In this document: piece after piece, positions 1-18,120 of the stretch
Position numbering within the stretch: the stretch's first letter is position 1
Layout of the letters: each line of letters opens with the position of its first letter
IMG/VR virus record: IMGVR_UViG_3300045988_002049
Length of the DNA stretch: 18,120 nucleotides
Origin: a virus
Direction: 5' to 3' (one strand)
Position numbers and translations under genes: made by a program
The notes under the pieces: generated by a model
What the model saw: only the letters and a program-made list of their open reading frames with translations
Database searches by the model: none
What the model was told of the DNA's origin: nothing

Positions 1-19
1 ACGTGTGCTCTTCCGATCT
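1..19. other. Illumina TruSeq adapter remnant (ACGTGTGCTCTTCCGATCT); not biological sequence
   Basis: Exact match to the 3' part of the TruSeq read-2 adapter. The exact reverse complement sits at the other end of the window. Confidence 0.95.
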
Positions 20-282
20 AAAAGGAGGGGAGGGGCCCCAGCAGCTAGCCTTTTTCCACAACTGCTCTGTTGTGTATTTTGTCCTTGCTCTCTGCCCTGT
101 GTTTTTCATTGTCGCTCCTGTCCTGTCTTTGTTTATCTCCTTTGTTGTCTTCTATTTTACCTGCTTTTTTTTTGTTGTCAATTTCGCGTGTTGTTTTGCG
201 TGTATTTTTTTTGTGTGTGTTGGGTGTGTTGTTTTTGTGGTGTGGTATGATGTGAGTATTAGCCGATAAGGAAGGAAGTAAA
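20..282. repeat. Left inverted terminal repeat (263 bp)
   Basis: Reverse complement of 17839-18101. Identity follows from identical ORF translations in three frames (3..269, 5..250, 70..255 versus the mirrored ORFs) plus manual comparison of 261-282. The first mismatch is at 283 versus 17838. Confidence 0.95.
243..251 (+). promoter_or_regulatory. Extended -10-like box TGgTATGAT inside the left ITR, facing inward
   Basis: TGnTATGAT lies 34 nt upstream of ATG 285 and is followed by the SD GGAAGGAAG (270-278). No good -35 was found. Confidence 0.4.
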
Positions 283-284
283 GA

Positions 285-542
285 ATGATTAACCTTAACG
301 CTTATGTTATCGAACTTGAAGAGGACAATTGGTACGAAGTTTGCGTCGAAGGCGTGCTCAAGACTTCCGTTCGTGATAATGGTTGTTTTGATGATACTGT
401 TATTACGTTCGAGTCCGCCCTTGCGGCGGTTATCGAACTTTCTTTGAGCTACGATTATGATTACGTTGAAATCAAGCGGTGTTTGTCTAAGAAAGGTCGC
501 CCGTGCCGTAAGTATGTTGTCTCGGTCGACAACGGCGATTGA
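285..542 (+). CDS. Hypothetical small early protein (85 aa), the only plus-strand gene
   Basis: ATG lies 6 nt after an SD (GGAAGGAAG) contributed by the ITR. The ORF ends just before a bidirectional terminator. No recognisable motif. Confidence 0.7.
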   Translation: MINLNAYVIELEEDNWYEVCVEGVLKTSVRDNGCFDDTVITFESALAAVIELSLSYDYDYVEIKRCLSKKGRPCRKYVVSVDNGD

Positions 543-10770: not shown

Positions 10771-10779
10771 ATTATATCA
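10771..10779 (-). promoter_or_regulatory. Perfect extended -10 box TGATATAAT whose TGA is the capsid stop codon
   Basis: Minus strand reads acc gcg TGA TATAAT gagaggg. A transcript starting here would carry the 115-nt hairpin/(UC)n leader of the tail-knob gene. Confidence 0.45.
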
Positions 10780-12507
10780 CGCGGTCACGGTCACACTCTT
10801 CTTTCCGGACACGCCGAACAGCGTGGCGGTGATATCAGAGTTGCCCGCCTTGACGCCAGTCACCACGCCGGACTCGGATACGGTGGCATTCGCCGGAGTG
10901 CCGGACGTCCATGCGGCCTGTGCGGTCACGTCGGCGGTACGTCCGTCAATCATGGTTGCCACGGCGGTCGCCTGCGCCGTATGTTCCACAGTCACGTTCG
11001 GGACGGTCACGGCAATGGACGCGACGATAGACGGGTTGAATCCGATAACACCGTCACCGACCACTGGCACGTCTAGGGCTGCGGACACGGTGCCCGGCAC
11101 TTCCGGCGTCGCCGGATTCGTATATAAGGCGGTTGCAGTAATCGGGATGGTGGTGTTCGGTTCGTCAAGGCCGACCACCAGCACGCCGGTAGGCGAGATA
11201 TATGTGTAATCGCTCTTCGGCTTGGCAGTGTCACCGATACGATACTCGACCGCATCCGAGCGGAACGTGGCAGTACCGTCATTAGTGATAGTCGTGTCGG
11301 CAGTGACTTGCACCGCGCCACCACGCGCCACATCGCTCGGAGTTTCCGAGCCACCGCCATACATGGCAAGTTTGAGTTGGAATGTCGGTGTTTCGGCCTG
11401 CGTGCCGGTAGGTGTCACCACGTTGGCGGTGGAACCTGCGCCAGTCCAGAACATCACGGCCGGGGCGAAGCCGGACACTGAGATGATGTGCTGGACATGC
11501 AGATAATGGTTGACCGAATTGATGTTTACCGGATTAGTCTGCTGAGTCATCTCGTTAATGACCGGAATGTCAATCAGGAACTTGTCGGTCGTAAGAATGG
11601 CCTGAACACCATCCATGCCGAACCTATCTTGCGGAATGACGATAATCCGGTCAATGGTCGGCTCGGCGTCCGTACGCTGGAATACCGTGGCGAGGCCCTG
11701 CACGTCAAGCGCCGACTTGACTTCAGGCGAGCAGAACAATACGAGTTCGTCCGGACGGGCGAACGTCGGCATGTGGCGGGCGTTGTACTTGGTGGACACG
11801 AATTTAAGCGTGTCGGCCCATGCGCGAATCTGGCGCAGCATGTCGCGGGCGTCCGTTTCCGAACTGCCCATGTTGTTCAGGTCCTTATCCATATGCACTC
11901 GCCAATATCCGCCGAGCTTCGCATATTCGACGAACTGGTGGCACAAGGCTTCGAACAAGTCAACTTCAGCCGCGTTATAGCAGGATGTAAGAATCTGCGA
12001 AGTGAGCGAGGCCAGACCGTTTTCGGACGTGAAAGCACGCTGCAATGTCTTGTCGTCCGTAGTCGCGGGATACCAGTGAGCGAAATCCAGACGGTGATAG
12101 AGCGAATCCACGTCGATTTTCCACTTGCGGAAGTTGTCTGCGCCGAGATATTCCGCATTGGGGTCATAGACCTGCGCGAGCGGCATTCCCACGGCGATTT
12201 CCTGCCACGTGTCGCCATACGCCTGCGATGCTCGCTGGAAAACGCTGAGAGGATTGTTCCAACGCCACGTGTTCACATAGGTGCCGCCGATACGGTTCAC
12301 CAGTGCCGAATAAAACTCATTCTTGAGCTGGGTGGACGACATAAGCGTGGCCATCTGCCTATCCATATTCATCTGAGTGGCCGAGGGCATTCGTCGCTGG
12401 TACTCTGGCGACGCCTCGTTGCGAATCATATTCAAAATTTGAGCGTTGTTAAATTCGGTGAGCGGGCGAAGCTGCTGCTTCGGCGTCACCACTGGAGTGG
12501 TTGCCAT
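10777..12507 (-). CDS. Major capsid protein (phi29 gp8-like, HK97 fold) with a C-terminal Big_2 Ig-like domain
   Basis: ILNMIRNEASPEYQRRMPSA, NEFYSALVNRIG and ILTSCYNAAEVDLFE parallel phi29 gp8 ([45 protein letters not shown]). The C-terminal approximately 75 aa (VTAQAAWTSGTPANATVSESGVVTGVKAGNSDITATL...VTVTA) is a textbook Big_2 pattern. SD is AGGAAGGAA. Confidence 0.95.
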   Translation of the reverse strand: MATTPVVTPKQQLRPLTEFNNAQILNMIRNEASPEYQRRMPSATQMNMDRQMATLMSSTQLKNEFYSALVNRIGGTYVNTWRWNNPLSVFQRASQAYGDTWQEIAVGMPLAQVYDPNAEYLGADNFRKWKIDVDSLYHRLDFAHWYPATTDDKTLQRAFTSENGLASLTSQILTSCYNAAEVDLFEALCHQFVEYAKLGGYWRVHMDKDLNNMGSSETDARDMLRQIRAWADTLKFVSTKYNARHMPTFARPDELVLFCSPEVKSALDVQGLATVFQRTDAEPTIDRIIVIPQDRFGMDGVQAILTTDKFLIDIPVINEMTQQTNPVNINSVNHYLHVQHIISVSGFAPAVMFWTGAGSTANVVTPTGTQAETPTFQLKLAMYGGGSETPSDVARGGAVQVTADTTITNDGTATFRSDAVEYRIGDTAKPKSDYTYISPTGVLVVGLDEPNTTIPITATALYTNPATPEVPGTVSAALDVPVVGDGVIGFNPSIVASIAVTVPNVTVEHTAQATAVATMIDGRTADVTAQAAWTSGTPANATVSESGVVTGVKAGNSDITATLFGVSGKKSVTVTA

Positions 12508-12529: not shown

Positions 12530-12871
12530 TCAGTCTTCATATAAATCGTCAAACGTGCTGTAGGTGCCGTTATAGTCGTCGTCGGTCATTTCAGCCGATT
12601 CCGGAGTCGCATCGTCGTCGGGGCCATCGTTCAGTACATGGTCGGCGGCGGCGTCGCGCATCGCTTCGACGGTTTTGGACAATTCTGCCACGGTCGCCTC
12701 CAATGCGCTCAGCCGGTCGGACATGTCGGCGGTTTTGTCGTCGCCTGCGTCGTCGGGGTCGTTATCGCCCTGTGCTTCAGTCTCCGGGTTCGGCGTATTG
12801 TCGTCGGCGGTCACGTCCGGTTCGGTGTCGGGCGTGGTGTCCGGCTTGTCATCATTTTCGGTGTCGTCCAT
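12530..12871 (-). CDS. Highly acidic 113-aa protein; scaffolding-protein candidate (position of phi29 gp7)
   Basis: It lies immediately upstream of the capsid gene. A central helical segment (LSALEATVAELSKTVEAMRDAAA) is flanked by D/E/T/P-rich tails. ATG 12871 is preferred over the track GTG 12877, which is part of the SD AAGAGGTG. Confidence 0.55.
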   Translation of the reverse strand: MDDTENDDKPDTTPDTEPDVTADDNTPNPETEAQGDNDPDDAGDDKTADMSDRLSALEATVAELSKTVEAMRDAAADHVLNDGPDDDATPESAEMTDDDYNGTYSTFDDLYED

Positions 12872-12891
12872 AATCACCTCTTAAGGTAGAT

Positions 12892-13056: not shown

Positions 13057-13065
13057 ATTATAGCA
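13057..13065 (-). promoter_or_regulatory. Perfect extended -10 box TGCTATAAT overlapping the DNA polymerase stop codon; candidate late promoter or ncRNA promoter
   Basis: Minus strand reads gtg cta TAA tga, that is TGcTATAAT. It is followed by the 180-nt non-coding structured region and then the scaffold and capsid genes. Confidence 0.5.
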
Positions 13066-14518
13066 CAAAAAAACAGCCGTCATCGTTGACATGGCGTGAC
13101 CTCGGTAGAAAATCATCGTAGGGGATAGGGGCTGTCCGATGCACGCCACTCAACCGCATGACGGTATCGCCGTCTGTTTCCACGCCGCAGTATTTGCGAT
13201 TGCCGAGAATGCGAAGTTTTTTGTAGGTGTGGTCGTTTTTCCACGCGCCCAGTTTCTTGTCGTCCGTTTCGATGTTTGCGGGCGCATCCAGTCCGTCCAA
13301 TATCATGCCGTCTGTGTCGGCGTAGAGCACGCGGTCGGCGTTCGCGTTCATCGCGCGTGACAGTATTTGCCTCCCGTAGGCGTTGACGTATGCGGCGGTT
13401 GGCAGCCATGCGAGTGAGTTGATTGACTCAGGTTTGTCTACAGTAAAATCCACACCGCCATCACCGGAAGGCTTCGGGTGAAGCATAGGCCGATAAAGCG
13501 AGGCCCCGAATTTCCCTACCAGCGAGTTTAACAATAGTTTCGCCATTTGCCGACGTTCACCGGTTGCGGTTTGTTTCACGTGAAACCATTTGTCAACATA
13601 GTTGTAATAAAGTCCATGCGATTTACGGAATTTCCAGCCGCCGATATAATCCCACACATGGACGTCATAGTTTTCCGTCAAGGTTTGCCAATCCACGTCG
13701 GTCACGGGCATGGTGACGACGCCCAACGTACTATCCAGACGTTCGCCCTCATACCCCCATACTGGTAGGATATTAGTGAGCGTCGCCGTTTTTCCCGGTT
13801 TCAGCCGCGCATCGAACGCGATAACGTCGATGTGCAGCGGACAGTCCGCGTCATAATGATATTCTCCCTCATACCATAGGGGGGAGCCTATCGGCATGGC
13901 AAAGTCTCGCATGACGCTCGGATAGAGACTATTCACGTCCCAGCTGTTGCAATCCCGATATTCGCCCGGCCTGCTGTACACTATCGCTCCATAGTACGCG
14001 GGGCGCATCCTGTGATAATCCGCTTTATCCAATGGCGGGAAATGTCGTCTGAATCCGGCGTAATCTCCGCCGATATAGTCGTACATCGCCATAGATGCTA
14101 TGGTTGTGCCCTTGAGCCGCAGGGCGTCGCATTCCTGTGCGATGTTCCATGTGGTTTCCAAGTCATCCACGCCGCCAAATGTTTCGCGTGAGACATTCAA
14201 CCCATCATCGCGCGTGATGTTGCGCACATCTATAAAATCCACGGTGATACCGCCCATGCGCACCCGGAAACTGTAGAAATGGCCGCGAATGTTGAAAGTG
14301 CCCCAGACTCCATCCTTTGCTGGATTCGATTGCAATGGCAGTCGTTTCAATAGTTGAGCGGCTATAGGCTTGATGTCCTGCCATCCGTGAGCGCACCATA
14401 CGCGCGTATGATGGTCCAGCATGGTCAATCGAATGACGGCATTCGCCGTCAATGGCGCTATACCGTCGTCCGTTAATAGTGTTGCGCCATCTGTTGCCGC
14501 CGTTCGACGCTCTCGCAT
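13058..14518 (-). CDS. Protein-primed family-B DNA polymerase (phi29 gp2-like), unusually compact at 486 aa
   Basis: Motif A is WDVNSLYPS, motif B is KLLLNSLVGKFG, motif C is LYADTDG, and KxY is GNRKYCG. Several blocks are collinear with phi29 DNAP (RVWCAHGW, FRRHFPPL, WKFRKSHGLYYNYVDKW). SD is AAGGA. Confidence 0.95.
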   Translation of the reverse strand: MRERRTAATDGATLLTDDGIAPLTANAVIRLTMLDHHTRVWCAHGWQDIKPIAAQLLKRLPLQSNPAKDGVWGTFNIRGHFYSFRVRMGGITVDFIDVRNITRDDGLNVSRETFGGVDDLETTWNIAQECDALRLKGTTIASMAMYDYIGGDYAGFRRHFPPLDKADYHRMRPAYYGAIVYSRPGEYRDCNSWDVNSLYPSVMRDFAMPIGSPLWYEGEYHYDADCPLHIDVIAFDARLKPGKTATLTNILPVWGYEGERLDSTLGVVTMPVTDVDWQTLTENYDVHVWDYIGGWKFRKSHGLYYNYVDKWFHVKQTATGERRQMAKLLLNSLVGKFGASLYRPMLHPKPSGDGGVDFTVDKPESINSLAWLPTAAYVNAYGRQILSRAMNANADRVLYADTDGMILDGLDAPANIETDDKKLGAWKNDHTYKKLRILGNRKYCGVETDGDTVMRLSGVHRTAPIPYDDFLPRSRHVNDDGCFFVL

Positions 14519-14533
14519 AATTCCATCCTTTTT

Positions 14534-15478
14534 TTAGTGTCTTGCTGCGCTGGTTATCCATTCGTCAAGTCGTGTCCCTACATCTCCCGCGTCTGCTTTA
14601 GTCTCCCATTTATGCGCCTTATCATTATACCATGTTGCCTCGCGCACTACGGTGCTGAAATTCGTGTTGTTTATCAGCCATCGTTTCTGACGGTTCGACA
14701 AGGCGGCGAATCTTTGAGCCACGCTAAAGTCGAACGCTTCAAGCTGTTGCGCGACCTTATCAAAATCCGAAACACCCTCGTTCTCGGGAATACGCCTAGT
14801 TCCCGTGCGTAATGGCGCACGTCCTACAAGTCCGGCGTATTCAAGCATCTCCCGTTCAAGTTTCCTACGACTTCCCCCTCGCATCATCGCGCGTGCATGG
14901 CTTATACCACGCTCTGTGCCGAACACGTTCGCACGGCTTCGCATGAGTTCGTCACGTGCTGAGCCGCCGACCGTGTGTGTGCCTAACACGTCGTACGGAG
15001 ATTCCCCAGCGCGTTCCATTTCACGCATTTCACCCACGGTATAGCGGGCCATGCTCAGCGCCTCGAATTGTTTAGCACGCTTGATTTTCTCCCGTGCCTC
15101 GACTCGGCGGCGCTGCTGCTGCCGTAATGTTTTCCGACGTTTCGACGGAGCTGCGGCAATTTCCGCATCGCTTATTAGAGGGCGCGACGCCATTTCACGG
15201 TCAAGTTTCGTGACATGGACGTCGGGGACAACCTGATACGGTTCATTATCTCGCGCCCTTAAGGCTTGCTGTTGTTCTCCAAATTCCTGCCCGATACGTC
15301 GTGCTACCTGTTCAAGCTGTTGGGCACTGAGGTTTCCTAAAAACGTTTCAGTGATTCGTTTAGGGAGTCGTCCGGTACTGTAGTCTCTGACTGCCCGTTC
15401 TCGGCGTACCTGTGCCGACCTGATTGCGGCGTTGCGTTTCAGATTGTCAGCGCGTCGGCGGTTTTTGCGTTTTGCCAC
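14534..15478 (-). CDS. Terminal protein candidate (314 aa, strongly basic N-terminus)
   Basis: It lies directly upstream of the protein-primed polymerase, as in phi29 and Cp-1. The N-terminus AKRKNRRRADNLKRN and a second KRRKTLRQQQRRR block are basic. No sequence motif was recognised. The start is set at GTG 15478 (SD GGGGGA) because the 34 codons upstream (to ATG 15580) are occupied by two hairpins. Confidence 0.6.
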   Translation of the reverse strand: MAKRKNRRRADNLKRNAAIRSAQVRRERAVRDYSTGRLPKRITETFLGNLSAQQLEQVARRIGQEFGEQQQALRARDNEPYQVVPDVHVTKLDREMASRPLISDAEIAAAPSKRRKTLRQQQRRRVEAREKIKRAKQFEALSMARYTVGEMREMERAGESPYDVLGTHTVGGSARDELMRSRANVFGTERGISHARAMMRGGSRRKLEREMLEYAGLVGRAPLRTGTRRIPENEGVSDFDKVAQQLEAFDFSVAQRFAALSNRQKRWLINNTNFSTVVREATWYNDKAHKWETKADAGDVGTRLDEWITSAARH

Positions 15479-15500
15479 GGTTCCCCCTGTGAGTATGAAA

Positions 15501-15536
15501 CACCCCTCGCCGCAAGGATGGAAACGGCGGGGGGTG
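15501..15536 (-). promoter_or_regulatory. 12-bp GC-rich stem-loop in the region upstream of the terminal-protein gene
   Basis: Plus strand reads CACCCCTCGCCG-12 nt loop-CGGCGGGGGGTG, with one position that is not Watson-Crick (T opposite G). A second imperfect hairpin lies at 15545-15570. Confidence 0.55.
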
Positions 15537-15598
15537 AGTCTGGCGGCAACATCCCTATAGGGACATTGCCATAATATCATATGGTGCGGACAATCGTG

Positions 15599-16036
15599 TT
15601 ACTTGCGCTTGTTTTCCGACACCAGTTCGAGGTCGAAGAACTTGTAGCCACGGCGACTCTTTTTTTCCACTACCTTGAGGGCAAGTGGCTGATTCCACGT
15701 GTCCGGCGTCCCGAAAATGGCGAACAGATTGCCGAATGCGTGCGCCAGCGTGGGGGAGGCTGCGGCAAAGTCGCCTTCCTCCGCGTGGATAACGACGCGG
15801 GTGGACGAATTGATTTCACCAGTCTCTTGATTGGCGACTTCGATGGCCTGCGCCAGCACGTTGGTGACGTGCAGCGGCTCGTTAAGGTGTTCGTCCACTT
15901 TATCGGCGGTCTGCATGGCGTTGTACAGCGCCATCTTGCCGTCCATCGTGGAAGTATCAAAGAAGTGGGATACGGCGTTAGTGCCGTTCGCAGAAAAATT
16001 GTTGCCGTTCGCTACGGTTAGTTCGTTGTCAGCCAT
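15599..16036 (-). CDS. Hypothetical early protein (145 aa); single-stranded-DNA-binding candidate by position only
   Basis: SD AAAGG is present. It occupies the slot just upstream of the terminal-protein and polymerase genes, where phi29 encodes p5/p6. No motif recognised. Confidence 0.3.
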   Translation of the reverse strand: MADNELTVANGNNFSANGTNAVSHFFDTSTMDGKMALYNAMQTADKVDEHLNEPLHVTNVLAQAIEVANQETGEINSSTRVVIHAEEGDFAAASPTLAHAFGNLFAIFGTPDTWNQPLALKVVEKKSRRGYKFFDLELVSENKRK

Positions 16037-16062: not shown

Positions 16063-16377
16063 TTAATTATTTTCCTCGGTGATAATATCATCTTCGACTA
16101 CGTTGCCGTTAACCGGCCCCGGATAGTCAATAATGGTATCGTCTCCAAATTCGCAATTAGCCCAATAGATTGCTTCGTCCATGCGTGTTGCCTGCGCATG
16201 ATATTCGGCGGACATGGGTAGCATGTCCTTGTTGATTTTGCGGGCTTTTTTCATAGCCATGTCAGCTGTACGGCACGCGCCATTCACGACTACCTCAGTG
16301 TCAACGAGTTCGCCGTTTTCACCGCGCGTGATGCCGTGTACGATACTGTAATGCTTGGCTCTTTTGATGTATGCCAT
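16063..16377 (-). CDS. Hypothetical early protein (104 aa, acidic C-terminal tail); dsDNA-binding (p6-like) candidate by size and position only
   Basis: ATG 16377 has SD AAGGTGG 7 nt upstream; the track ATG 16383 is only 1 nt from that SD. The C-terminus is VEDDIITEENN. Confidence 0.3.
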   Translation of the reverse strand: MAYIKRAKHYSIVHGITRGENGELVDTEVVVNGACRTADMAMKKARKINKDMLPMSAEYHAQATRMDEAIYWANCEFGDDTIIDYPGPVNGNVVEDDIITEENN

Positions 16378-16400
16378 AGTCATGCCACCTTATCTTATTG

Positions 16401-16925
16401 TTACTGCTGTTGCGATATTCTTGCAATGTCTTCATCAGTATACCGCACGTCGGTGAGATTGTCAAAACATCGACACGCGATTTTGACAACGGTCTGGGCA
16501 AATTCGTTGCCATCCCAGACTTTGCACATTTCGTAACATGTCGCACCCTTGACATGACAGACGGCGCACCACGCCACCATTGCCGGTGCGTAAATGACGC
16601 CGCCCAGCATTTCAATATCCTGAGTTCGCGCCAACGCGCCGATACGCGACGTGTGAGGGGACAGTGATAAACAAACGTTTGCCGCATGTTCCACGCCGTC
16701 AGCGAACGCCACTTGCGACCCTTGAGGCTCGTAAAAGTCCTTGAGCAGTGTTATACTACGGCATAATGTTTCCCAATCGCCCTCGCCTCGATTGTATTCG
16801 CGCAAGTGCAGATTGCGGCGGCGTCCCCGAATGACACGGCGCACACGGTCGTCATCCAGCACGCCATCGTCAAACCAGTTTGTACGTTTTTCGCTTTTAT
16901 CAAAATTCAAATTCTTCAATTTCAT
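16401..16925 (-). CDS. Hypothetical early protein (174 aa) with a C-terminal cysteine cluster
   Basis: SD TTGGAG lies 8 nt upstream. The coding gene is tightly packed. A Cys cluster WCAVCHVKGATCYEMCKVWDG...ACRC is present. Confidence 0.6.
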   Translation of the reverse strand: MKLKNLNFDKSEKRTNWFDDGVLDDDRVRRVIRGRRRNLHLREYNRGEGDWETLCRSITLLKDFYEPQGSQVAFADGVEHAANVCLSLSPHTSRIGALARTQDIEMLGGVIYAPAMVAWCAVCHVKGATCYEMCKVWDGNEFAQTVVKIACRCFDNLTDVRYTDEDIARISQQQ

Positions 16926-16927
16926 AA

Positions 16928-17131
16928 TTAAAACTCCAATGTGTCTTCATTACTATCATAACCGTCCAGCCACATCGTTTTCCACAGAAAACCGCTCGGG
17001 CAACGTTTTGGCGGATTATCCGCACTACGTCTATGCTTCACACCTGCCCAAAACGCACGTAAACGCCAATATATGTTAGCGTCAAGACAGTTGCCGCAAG
17101 TCCATGAATGAACCCAACCACGAAAATACAT
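16928..17131 (-). CDS. Hypothetical early protein (67 aa, Trp-rich, one CxxC)
   Basis: SD GAAAGGAA is present. The ATG lies 2 nt after the upstream stop. HSWTCGNC plus a distal Cys and His could form a small zinc-binding fold, which is speculative. Confidence 0.55.
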   Translation of the reverse strand: MYFRGWVHSWTCGNCLDANIYWRLRAFWAGVKHRRSADNPPKRCPSGFLWKTMWLDGYDSNEDTLEF

Positions 17132-17133
17132 GA

Positions 17134-17379
17134 CTAATTCCTTTCCAAAAGCGGAGTGAGCGCCAAGTTAGTAGCGTCAACGATGATATCGACCACTTGG
17201 TCATAGTCGCATGCGTCATACGGAGTTAATGCAACTGCGTCAGTCAATCCGTCCATTGAATAAAATCGGACATCATACCGAAGTTCGTACACACTGCGGT
17301 GAGCGCAATACCATAGCCCAACGTCACCGCCCCTGAATGGAGAATGGAACGTAGCAATCTTCTTATCAATATCAACCAT
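17134..17379 (-). CDS. Hypothetical early protein (81 aa)
   Basis: The start is moved to ATG 17379 (SD AAAGGA 8 nt upstream). The track start 17457 is a TTG whose N-terminal extension overlaps the better-supported small membrane ORF in another frame. Confidence 0.6.
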   Translation of the reverse strand: MVDIDKKIATFHSPFRGGDVGLWYCAHRSVYELRYDVRFYSMDGLTDAVALTPYDACDYDQVVDIIVDATNLALTPLLERN

Positions 17380-17384
17380 TTCAA

Positions 17385-17558
17385 TTATCCTTTCCACATC
17401 ACAGAAACGAAAACCAACACAGTGGACACGCTCACAGCAAGCATGACCAAAAAACAAAAAACGTCACGCGCATTACGAGGCAGTTCGCAAAACACCGTAG
17501 CCGCCATTATAAGAAACAGCACGGAAATGATACATACGGCAACAATCATACCACCCAT
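17385..17558 (-). CDS. Unannotated 57-aa two-transmembrane-helix protein (below the ORF-track size cutoff)
   Basis: Hand translation gives MGGMIVAVCIISVLFLIMAATVFCELPRNARDVFCFLVMLAVSVSTVLVFVSVMWKG. The ATG overlaps the upstream stop (TAATG), and an alternative ATG lies at 17549. The stop TAA lies 5 nt before the next gene's ATG. It fills an otherwise 100-nt gap in a tightly packed operon. Confidence 0.6.
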   Translation of the reverse strand: MGGMIVAVCIISVLFLIMAATVFCELPRNARDVFCFLVMLAVSVSTVLVFVSVMWKG

Positions 17559-17830
17559 TACAGCAACACCACCTTTACTACGCCGACCATAGTACTATCC
17601 ATGTCAAACGTAGCATTATCGATATTCACGTCCACATCAACACCGACGTACATATTCCTTACATAAGACAGCACGCCGTCTAATGAGGATTTCAGAGACG
17701 CCGTAAGAAACATGCCGCTAGGCTTCACGCAATCGGGCAGAATCTCGAACACCTGAAACCCATCGTCAGTGATAATGAAATGCCACACTTCAGACCTCCT
17801 CAACACGGCTAGAGCGGTAATAGTATTCAT
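17558..17830 (-). CDS. Hypothetical early protein (90 aa), first gene inward of the right ITR
   Basis: The ATG lies 12 nt after the ITR-borne SD GGAAGGAAG. No recognisable motif. Confidence 0.65.
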   Translation of the reverse strand: MNTITALAVLRRSEVWHFIITDDGFQVFEILPDCVKPSGMFLTASLKSSLDGVLSYVRNMYVGVDVDVNIDNATFDMDSTMVGVVKVVLL

Positions 17831-17838
17831 TTTTATTT

Positions 17839-18101
17839 TTTACTTCCTTCCTTATCGGCTAATACTCACATCATACCACACCACAAAAACAACACACCCA
17901 ACACACACAAAAAAAATACACGCAAAACAACACGCGAAATTGACAACAAAAAAAAAGCAGGTAAAATAGAAGACAACAAAGGAGATAAACAAAGACAGGA
18001 CAGGAGCGACAATGAAAAACACAGGGCAGAGAGCAAGGACAAAATACACAACAGAGCAGTTGTGGAAAAAGGCTAGCTGCTGGGGCCCCTCCCCTCCTTT
18101 T
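17839..18101. repeat. Right inverted terminal repeat (263 bp)
   Basis: Perfect reverse complement of 20-282. Confidence 0.95.
17870..17878 (-). promoter_or_regulatory. Mirror copy of the ITR extended -10-like box, facing inward (candidate early promoter of the minus-strand gene train)
   Basis: Same sequence as 243-251 because it lies in the ITR. It sits upstream of the SD GGAAGGAAG and ATG 17830. Confidence 0.4.
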
Positions 18102-18120
18102 AGATCGGAAGAGCACACGT
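18102..18120. other. Illumina TruSeq adapter read-through (AGATCGGAAGAGCACACGT); not biological sequence
   Basis: Canonical adapter-trimming string. The leading A is the A-tail added to the genomic 3' end. Confidence 0.95.

Follow-up and report, generated by a model that had tools for sequence, protein, structure and literature searches.

A compact phi29-type DNA polymerase from a phage most likely infecting Bifidobacterium keeps a remnant exonuclease domain and is predicted to lack proofreading

Results

The N-terminal domain of the polymerase is a shrunken exonuclease fold

We analyzed the DNA polymerase gene of IMG/VR virus record IMGVR_UViG_3300045988_002049, a stretch of 18,120 nucleotides that is referred to here as the window. 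The gene lies on the minus strand at positions 13058..14518 (ATG at 14518, stop codon at 13058-13060) and encodes a phi29-type, protein-primed family B polymerase of 486 amino acids (aa). Profile comparisons, structural models and analogy with phi29 make it quite likely that this enzyme is a proofreading-dead, protein-primed replicase that keeps its former exonuclease domain as a scaffold. An earlier reading of the window made from the sequence alone (the sequence-only reading) had located the open reading frame (ORF) correctly without stating its strand, and had proposed a degenerate exonuclease site in a compact replicase of the terminal-protein type. This central idea holds in our sequence comparisons, whereas the residue registers behind it and the proposed substitution of acidic residues by His do not. 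Reading 13058-14518 on the plus strand gives a translation full of stops and was rejected.

In phi29 the exonuclease active site is formed by four carboxylates together with Tyr165 and Lys143 (PMC4974454), and the exonuclease motifs have been described as universally conserved in phi29-type polymerases (PMC1635332). Simple searches (the Pfam profile and the PDB match to the phi29 DNA polymerase, DNAP) leave the N-terminal region of the window protein unaligned. By hhalign, aa 1-155 (14054..14518, minus strand) match canonical exonuclease domains with a probability of 97-99%. The AlphaFold2 (AF2) model of the 486-aa protein is of high confidence (predicted local distance difference test, pLDDT, 91; predicted template modelling score, pTM, 0.88), and a canonical homologue, P0120, was modelled alike for comparison of secondary structure. 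The window domain is built of strands E4-9, E13-16 and E19-22, helix H25-31, strand E37-42, helix H46-59, 3 hairpin strands, and helices H107-114, H119-132 and H140-149; the canonical P0120 order is beta1, beta2, beta3, alphaA, beta4, alphaB, hairpins, H137-143, a 23-residue coil, alphaC (H167-189) and H197-212. In the two models the order of the elements is identical and every element of the window domain is shorter. The domain as a whole is about 55 aa shorter than in phi29: as the sequence-only reading had counted, 193 residues precede the Asp of motif A, compared with about 248 in phi29. By profile and model, the N-terminal domain is homologous to the DnaQ-like polymerase exonuclease domain, and we describe it as a shrunken, catalytically degenerate remnant of a 3'-5' exonuclease.

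This domain is under strong purifying selection and is not decaying. Among 79 full-length IMG/VR relatives with no stops or indels, which were used for this analysis and for the variability among close relatives, the ratio of nonsynonymous to synonymous substitution rates (dN/dS, Nei-Gojobori) was 0.080 across codons 1-155, compared with 0.073 across codons 156-486, at a dS of 0.6-0.8, and residues D10, G11, H44, G45, W46, D48, D119, W124 and N125 were invariant. These data bear on the question of whether the short domain is an artefact or a pseudogene, arising from a wrong start codon, a frameshift, an assembly error or decay of the gene. The adapter sequence at both contig ends (see below) and an overlapping 118-aa ORF in another frame (14205-14561) would be compatible with such an origin, which is nevertheless extremely improbable: the same 486-aa protein recurs, free of stops and indels, in more than 80 independent contigs, dN/dS is 0.08, AF2 confidence is high from the first residue on, the stop codon of the upstream gene is followed after 15 nt by the start ATG, and cultured Bifidobacterium phages share the architecture. 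A hidden N-terminal exon or frameshift was also rejected on the position of the start and the agreement of the contigs, and the 118-aa ORF contains no polymerase-like sequence.

Most canonical exonuclease residues are missing

We mapped the exonuclease motifs by a 13-versus-17 profile comparison, a MAFFT alignment of 36 sequences and a 27-versus-135 profile hhalign comparison. A canonical DxE, NxxxD or YxxxD set could not be placed in any of these alignments. The first 3 short strands (aa 4-22; 14453..14509, minus strand; AF2 strands E4-9, E13-16 and E19-22) are the remnant of beta1-beta3 and contain a conserved T9-D10-G11. The Asp-x-Glu of ExoI is absent under every register, and no DxE or DxD occurs anywhere in aa 1-90. 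Position 12 is A, V or T in the 79 close relatives, and the position of the ExoI Glu is occupied by A, V, T, R, S or G across the short clade described below, never by an acidic residue.

The ExoII-equivalent strand and helix comprise aa 37-59, HTRVWCAHGWQD48IKPIAAQLLKR (14342..14410, minus strand), with E37-42 and H46-59 in the window model versus E53-57 and H60-73 in the canonical one. The equivalent of ExoII Asn62 is Gly45 in the 13-versus-17 profiles or His44 in the two other alignments, and D48 corresponds to phi29 Asp66 in four alignments. In addition, W41, H44 and I52 fall at or near the positions of phi29 Tyr59, His61 and Phe69, residues reported to be essential for terminal-protein binding (Eisenbrandt 2002, as cited in PMC1635332). 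The sequence-only reading had instead equated TRVWCAHGW with CRVWAYGY of phi29, in strand beta2. The 13-versus-17 profiles, MAFFT and the 27-versus-135 hhalign comparison all place TRVWCAHGW on the ExoII strand, ADLYFHNLKFD in phi29, and the AF2 order E-E-E-H-E-H assigns it to beta4 because a helix precedes it and the long helix alphaB follows. The beta2 register appeared only in a global hhalign run with near-zero column confidence and with a shallow 8-sequence profile, and was rejected.

With TRVWCAHGW on the ExoII strand, the segments that had been taken for ExoI (L-D35-H-H37-T) and ExoII (N76-IRG-H80) fall elsewhere. The former (aa 34-38; 14405..14419, minus strand) is the loop between helix alphaA and strand beta4 (AF2 coil 32-36, between H25-31 and E37-42), and among the 79 relatives D35 changes to N, E or G and H36 to Y, R or C. 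The latter (aa 76-80; 14279..14293, minus strand) is a beta-hairpin turn (AF2 E70-75 and E81-88) that hhalign matches to 'IISRMGQWY' of phi29, the region of Arg96, and H80 changes to R or N. The histidines named as replacements of acidic residues thus lie in a loop and a hairpin. A His-based replacement site was therefore rejected: H36 and H80 vary in close relatives and no His is kept across the clade.

The ExoIII region (aa 114-132; 14123..14179, minus strand) reads FGG-VD-D119-LETTWNIAQECDA and consists of a deletion of about 28 aa, seen as alignment gaps, followed by a truncated ExoIII helix. Every alignment shows a gap of 23-28 residues directly before this helix, which removes the Lys of the Kx2h motif and the ExoIII Tyr, and helix H119-132 has 14 residues versus 23 in the canonical P0120 model. 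When the ungapped segment is anchored at T139, which corresponds to the invariant Thr T196 of P0120, D176 of P0120 falls on D119 and Y172 on G115. D119 is therefore the probable equivalent of phi29 Asp169, and the earlier placement of ExoIII at TTWN-IAQ, with no Tyr or Asp in register, does not hold; one hhalign run favours T123 over D119 for this role.

Taken together, profiles and models indicate that the window enzyme has no counterpart of the ExoI Glu, the ExoII Asn, the Kx2h Lys or the ExoIII Tyr, and that probably only D48 and D119, perhaps with D10, are left at former carboxylate positions. The claim that three of the four metal-binding carboxylates are missing is overstated for this protein, because Asp66 and Asp169 probably still have their counterparts in D48 and D119 within the subclade to which the window belongs. 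Neither profile nor structural alignment placed Asp or Glu at all of the ExoI-III positions. Given the lack of the ExoI DxE, the changed ExoII Asn and the deletion of about 28 residues, we predict, with reasonable though not full confidence, that the enzyme performs no useful proofreading.

Loss of the exonuclease residues is shared by a clade of short polymerases

In a profile search, 1.84 billion representatives yielded 11,302 relatives, of which the best 150, together with earlier matches, were mapped onto phi29. All of the approximately 115 canonical representatives carry D12, E14, N62, D66, K143, Y165 and D169, including those of phages with Actinomycetota hosts (Eggerthella LE1-1, Microbacterium Evcara, Curtobacterium Ayka and Arthrobacter Swim). 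A short clade that includes the window protein and isolated Bifidobacterium phages has none of this set as such. It comprises 27 sequences of 445-496 aa (454-496 aa for the metagenomic members; BD811P2 is annotated with 445 aa) and is monophyletic in a crude neighbour-joining (NJ) tree, which is only indicative. Within aa 1-165 of these 27 members (L-INS-i alignment), only N100, R103, T139, A144, F160 and P161 are conserved at 80% or more, and no column is acidic in 70% or more. D48 and D119 are confined to the subclade of the window; elsewhere in the clade, position 48 is occupied by T or V and position 119 by V, A, P or R.

By polymerase, the nearest isolates are BD811P1-3, BadAztec/BadAargau and BP1, with 35-37% identity. 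Metagenomes contain hundreds of relatives at 85-95%, and the nearest named entry is 'MAG: DNA polymerase [Bifidobacterium breve]' at 87%. The annotated polymerase of BD811P2 (445 aa) starts approximately 38 residues after that of the related metagenomic protein P0126 (483 aa), and 143 nt upstream of it (L001:3245-3386) are unannotated, so its deposited start codon may be too far downstream.

Beyond the short clade, degenerate exonuclease motifs also occur in approximately 19 longer enzymes (516-584 aa), which branch at about 12 separate places in the NJ tree (P0133, P0135, P0138, P0155, P0169, P0171, P0178, P0201, P0202, P0208, P0221, P0231, P0236, P0237, P0243, P0244, P0260, P0262 and P0264). 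In P0133, for instance, ADFETT has become AYFLTT. By their motifs, at least a dozen other metagenomic phi29-like lineages thus appear to show similar decay. P0135, P0138 and P0155 resemble intermediates in that part of the pre-ExoIII deletion is present.

A residual active site is weighed against a structural role

Several points weigh against the view that the domain has lost catalysis and persists as a scaffold. Residues were mapped by sequence profiles and by secondary-structure anchoring of two AF2 models, not by superposition of coordinates. Three registers compete for aa 1-22, in which D10 corresponds to Asp12, D10 corresponds to the loop residue Asp21 before beta2, or beta1 is deleted, and a pure count of secondary structure puts I49, one position off D48, at Asp66. 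Moreover, D10, H44, D48 and D119 are invariant in the 79 relatives and by homology cluster around the old active site, so that a residual or altered metal site might persist. The scaffold role, for its part, is extrapolated from phi29, and the terminal protein of the window phage is a candidate, assigned by its position and by homology to unannotated Bifidobacterium phage genes.

The invariant residues could belong to a non-canonical but active exonuclease that keeps proofreading within a minimised domain, with D10, D48 and D119 binding metal and His44 or another residue acting as the general base (DEDDh-like or one-metal). Such a site would fit the strong purifying selection on the domain, the location of D48 and D119 at Asp66 and Asp169 in most alignments, and the invariance of D10, G11, H44, G45, W46, D48 and D119 despite a dS of 0.6-0.8. 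However, no register provides a Glu or Asp at the position of the ExoI Glu, the segment with Lys143 and Tyr165 is deleted, and terminal-protein binding accounts equally well for the conservation of H44 and W41. In addition, the substitutions at positions 48 and 119 in the distant members, isolated viable phages among them, mean that any such site is not a feature of the clade. We regard an active non-canonical site as unlikely and favour the loss of exonuclease activity with retention of the domain as a scaffold.

The polymerase domain is intact except for a motif B substitution

The polymerase motifs are intact apart from motif B, as the sequence-only reading had stated. The Pfam profile PF03175 (DNA_pol_B_2) matches with 110.6 bits (cut-off, 25.8) and covers only aa 135-341 (profile positions 173-390 of 468); the protein also matches PHROG 1907 (E=7e-53) and the phi29 DNAP structure 1xhx (E=1e-43, aa 156-444 versus phi29 207-501, approximately 40% identity). 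Profile comparison extends the polymerase alignment to residue 479 and equates FRRHFPPL with FKKVFPTL of phi29, the flanking block that had been identified by eye. Foldseek comparison of the AF2 model gave query template modelling scores (TMq) of 0.80-0.85 to phi29 DNAP structures (0.85 to 2pyj_B) and of 0.47 or less to other family B polymerases.

The polymerase domain (aa 156-486; 13061..14053, minus strand) aligns continuously with phi29 207-550 and contains the palm, terminal protein region 1 (TPR1), fingers, terminal protein region 2 (TPR2) and a shortened thumb. Motif A (D194-VNSLYP; 13919..13939, minus strand) holds the catalytic Asp and the steric-gate Tyr199 in invariant columns, equivalent to phi29 D249 and Y254. 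Motif C (Y399-ADTDG; 13307..13324, minus strand) holds the catalytic Asp401 and Asp403 in the alignment, and the KxY motif is intact (K442-Y443). The TPR1 insertion (approximately aa 206-300; 13619..13903, minus strand) aligns with phi29 TPR1, the subdomain that binds the terminal protein, and its AF2 elements E208-217, E228-239, E268-273, H274-283 and E284-300 match those of the canonical model. A loop in TPR1 (aa 251-257; 13748-13768, minus strand) is the one place where the AF2 model has low confidence (pLDDT <50). The TPR2 beta-hairpin (approximately aa 343-363; 13430..13492, minus strand) is shortened, with strands E345-350 and E356-361 versus E414-422 and E428-437 in the canonical model. 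In the thumb (aa 445-486; 13061..13186, minus strand) the terminal hairpin is cut from approximately 11+10 to 3+3 residues (E475-477 and E483-485 versus E549-559 and E562-571; AF2 models).

Motif B (K327-LLLNSLVGKF; 13511..13540, minus strand) has Val333 in place of the family B invariant Tyr (phi29 Tyr390, RB69 Tyr567), which agrees with the NSLVG instead of NSxYG noted earlier. This position is V, I, T or A throughout the short clade, and Tyr in approximately 106 of the 115 canonical representatives. The Tyr is missing in about half of the approximately 19 longer degenerate enzymes versus approximately 9 of the 115 intact ones, a comparison that is uncorrected for phylogeny and drawn from a sample biased towards the relatives of the query. 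This sequence pattern suggests that loss of proofreading and an altered nascent base-pair pocket are linked. In phi29, the Y390S substitution reduced insertion fidelity and abolished discrimination opposite 8-oxoG (PMC1976434).

A further substitution within the clade concerns motif C. Its first Asp is replaced by Asn (YANTDG or YMNTDG) in P0094, P0121, P0122, P0124, P0126, P0128, P0131, P0161 and BD811P2 (L001:3387-4724); the window enzyme keeps Asp401.

The window is a complete phi29-like phage genome

The 20 main ORFs of the window were run against Pfam and PHROGs. The window is a complete, linear phi29-like phage genome of approximately 18.1 kb with inverted terminal repeats (ITRs), and its gene set is phi29-like: an amidase, a holin, a gp16 packaging ATPase, a lower collar protein, a connector, a gp9-type tail knob protein, Phi29_MCP and a phi29-type protein that binds single-stranded DNA (SSB). 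The phage is a phi29-like podophage whose host is most likely Bifidobacterium.

Directly upstream of the polymerase, a 348-aa ORF (14534..15580, minus strand) is a candidate terminal protein gene, in the position that this gene has in phi29 and in actinophages. It is homologous to its counterparts in BadAargau2 (E=1e-23) and in BD811P2 (E=8e-17), which are themselves not annotated as terminal protein. The ORF has no Pfam or PHROG match, and BLASTP against the annotated terminal proteins of phi29, Evcara, Ayka and Swim returned nothing. Its start codon is uncertain: the first approximately 38 residues do not align with the BadAargau2 and BD811P2 homologues, and the true start may therefore be further downstream. 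Next to it lies the phi29-type SSB gene (15599..16036, minus strand; Pfam Phi29_Phage_SSB, E=4e-15; PHROG 6243).

The Pfam and PHROG searches assigned no nuclease family to any of the 20 main ORFs. This bears on the possibility that a host exonuclease or an unannotated early phage protein provides proofreading in trans, and that the polymerase could dispense with its own site at no cost to fidelity. There is room for such a protein among the early ORFs with no detectable family (16063-16383, 16401-16925, 16928-17131, 17134-17457 and 17558-17830), and loss of the site is tolerated in a large, successful clade. Nevertheless, no ORF matches an exonuclease profile, and the only unassigned ORF of suitable size, of 174 aa, has no relative in the PDB. 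Moreover, according to the phi29 model, the enzyme surrounds the primer-template and completes the genome in a single binding event (PMC4974454), which would leave little access for a proofreader acting in trans. We therefore rate this explanation as very unlikely, and retain the loss of proofreading by the replicase as the preferred one.

The left ITR (1..286) is a 286-nt arm with 100% complementarity to the right ITR (17835..18120). The contig opens with ACGTGTGCTCTTCCGATCT (bases 1-19), which through the perfect ITR has its complement at 18102-18120 and which we take to be the reverse complement of the Illumina TruSeq adapter AGATCGGAAGAGCACACGT. With adapter in the first and last 19 bases, the true genome end probably starts at base 20 (AAAAGGAGG / AAAAGGAGGGG). 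After adapter removal, about 267 bp would remain for the ITR and about 18,082 bp for the genome, and the ligation of adapters at both ends argues for physical linear termini. The ITR proper (20-286, mirrored at 17835-18101) has a strong strand bias, being rich in T and G with long runs of T; the AT skew is approximately -0.34 across the first kilobase, and the A-run at the extreme terminus is compatible with sliding-back initiation.

Two further genes were noted. An extremely acidic 115-aa ORF (12530-12877, minus strand) between the polymerase and major capsid genes sits where the scaffolding protein lies in phi29 and Ayka, and has a weak PHROG spanin match (E=0.009). Like phi29 gp8, the major capsid protein (10777-12507, minus strand) has an Ig-like Big_2 domain at its C terminus (Pfam E=4e-4).

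Discussion

By profile, fold and polymerase motifs, the enzyme fits the phi29 family, but according to our alignments and models it does not have the exonuclease residues expected of that family. A 2024 survey describes mavirus as the only exception to the conservation of the exonuclease domain in family B polymerases (PMC11161782). We found no published report of exonuclease loss in phi29-like phage polymerases among open-access papers and preprints, and a 2024 review of phi29-like phages is silent on it too.

In phi29, the exonuclease domain forms, with TPR2, palm and fingers, a narrow template tunnel that forces strand displacement, and it contacts the terminal protein through Arg96 (PMC4974454). 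By analogy, the window enzyme would initiate on the terminal protein at each genome end, and its processive synthesis would run through the whole genome and displace the other strand. The deletion of about 28 residues would have taken away the auxiliary Lys and the ExoIII Tyr, plus one wall of the exonuclease site, leaving fidelity to base selection alone. The change of the motif B Tyr to Val may lower selectivity further, although the natural enzyme may compensate elsewhere. The remnant domain would still form part of the tunnel for the downstream template, and thereby serve strand displacement, and would provide part of the docking surface for the terminal protein; we infer that these roles are why selection has kept it.

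A further step would be to see the loss of proofreading as an adaptive trait. Under this proposal the phages would be natural hypermutators, D10, H44, D48 and D119 would have been repurposed for handling of the terminal protein or the 3' end, the same route would have been taken independently in at least 12 phi29-like lineages, and the clade would represent widespread Bifidobacterium podophages of the human and bee gut with a relaxed nascent-base-pair pocket. We consider both the adaptive trait and this picture of the clade doubtful.

Phi29-type polymerases are the standard single-subunit replicase in which priming, processivity, strand displacement and proofreading are joined. The short clade would be a natural separation of function, as a large group under selection keeps the domain and not its active site, and it can show which parts of the exonuclease domain serve terminal-protein docking and strand displacement and which serve only catalysis. 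It also predicts unusually high mutation rates in phages that infect Bifidobacterium, a genus with a keystone role in the infant gut, and this is directly testable because the isolates BD811P1-3, BadAztec and BP1 exist. Exonuclease-minus phi29 variants have been engineered for sequencing and for the incorporation of modified nucleotides; a naturally exonuclease-free, strand-displacing enzyme that is 15% smaller would, if confirmed, be a useful starting point for biotechnology.

Compared with phi29 DNAP (gp2; 1XHX, 2PYJ, 2EX3), the window enzyme has the palm, fingers, thumb, TPR1 and TPR2 in common, and the two phages share the gene order SSB - terminal protein - polymerase and a linear genome with terminal repeats. 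The window enzyme is 86-89 aa shorter, has shorter TPR2 and thumb hairpins, appears to lack the ExoI Glu, ExoII Asn, Kx2h Lys and ExoIII Tyr, and has Val in place of motif B Tyr390; the ITR is about 267 bp long versus 6 bp in phi29. Among described enzymes, the closest parallel for the loss is found in the pPolB enzymes of mavirus and polinton-like viruses, protein-primed family B polymerases with a remnant or lost exonuclease for which lower fidelity is also predicted (PMC11161782). These are eukaryotic viruses with TP-vOTU fusions, in which exonuclease loss goes with the gain of a helicase, whereas the window enzyme keeps the fold of the domain, its genome encodes no helicase, and TPR2-based strand displacement is presumably retained. 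The engineered phi29 D12A/D66A enzyme likewise polymerises without proofreading and is a laboratory point mutant with an intact domain (PMC1976434). The window enzyme, in contrast, is natural, remodelled, shortened and maintained by selection. In eukaryotic Pol alpha and Pol zeta, too, the exonuclease fold persists as a structural module although its catalytic carboxylates have been lost, but these are RNA/DNA-primed cellular enzymes with accessory factors and not sole viral replicases.

The closest counterparts are the Bifidobacterium podophages (Badaztecvirus BadAztec1 and BadAargau2; BD811P1-3; BP1), whose records label the protein merely 'DNA polymerase'. They have the same compact polymerase (445-470 aa as annotated), in which the N-terminal domain is degenerate in the same way and motif B lacks the Tyr, and their genomes are syntenic with the window; the BadAztec1 model gave a TMq of 0.87 and a root-mean-square deviation of 2.3. 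In these polymerases the equivalents of D48 and D119 are also gone, and from these sequence comparisons the window phage probably represents a lineage related to Badaztecvirus and not the same genus.

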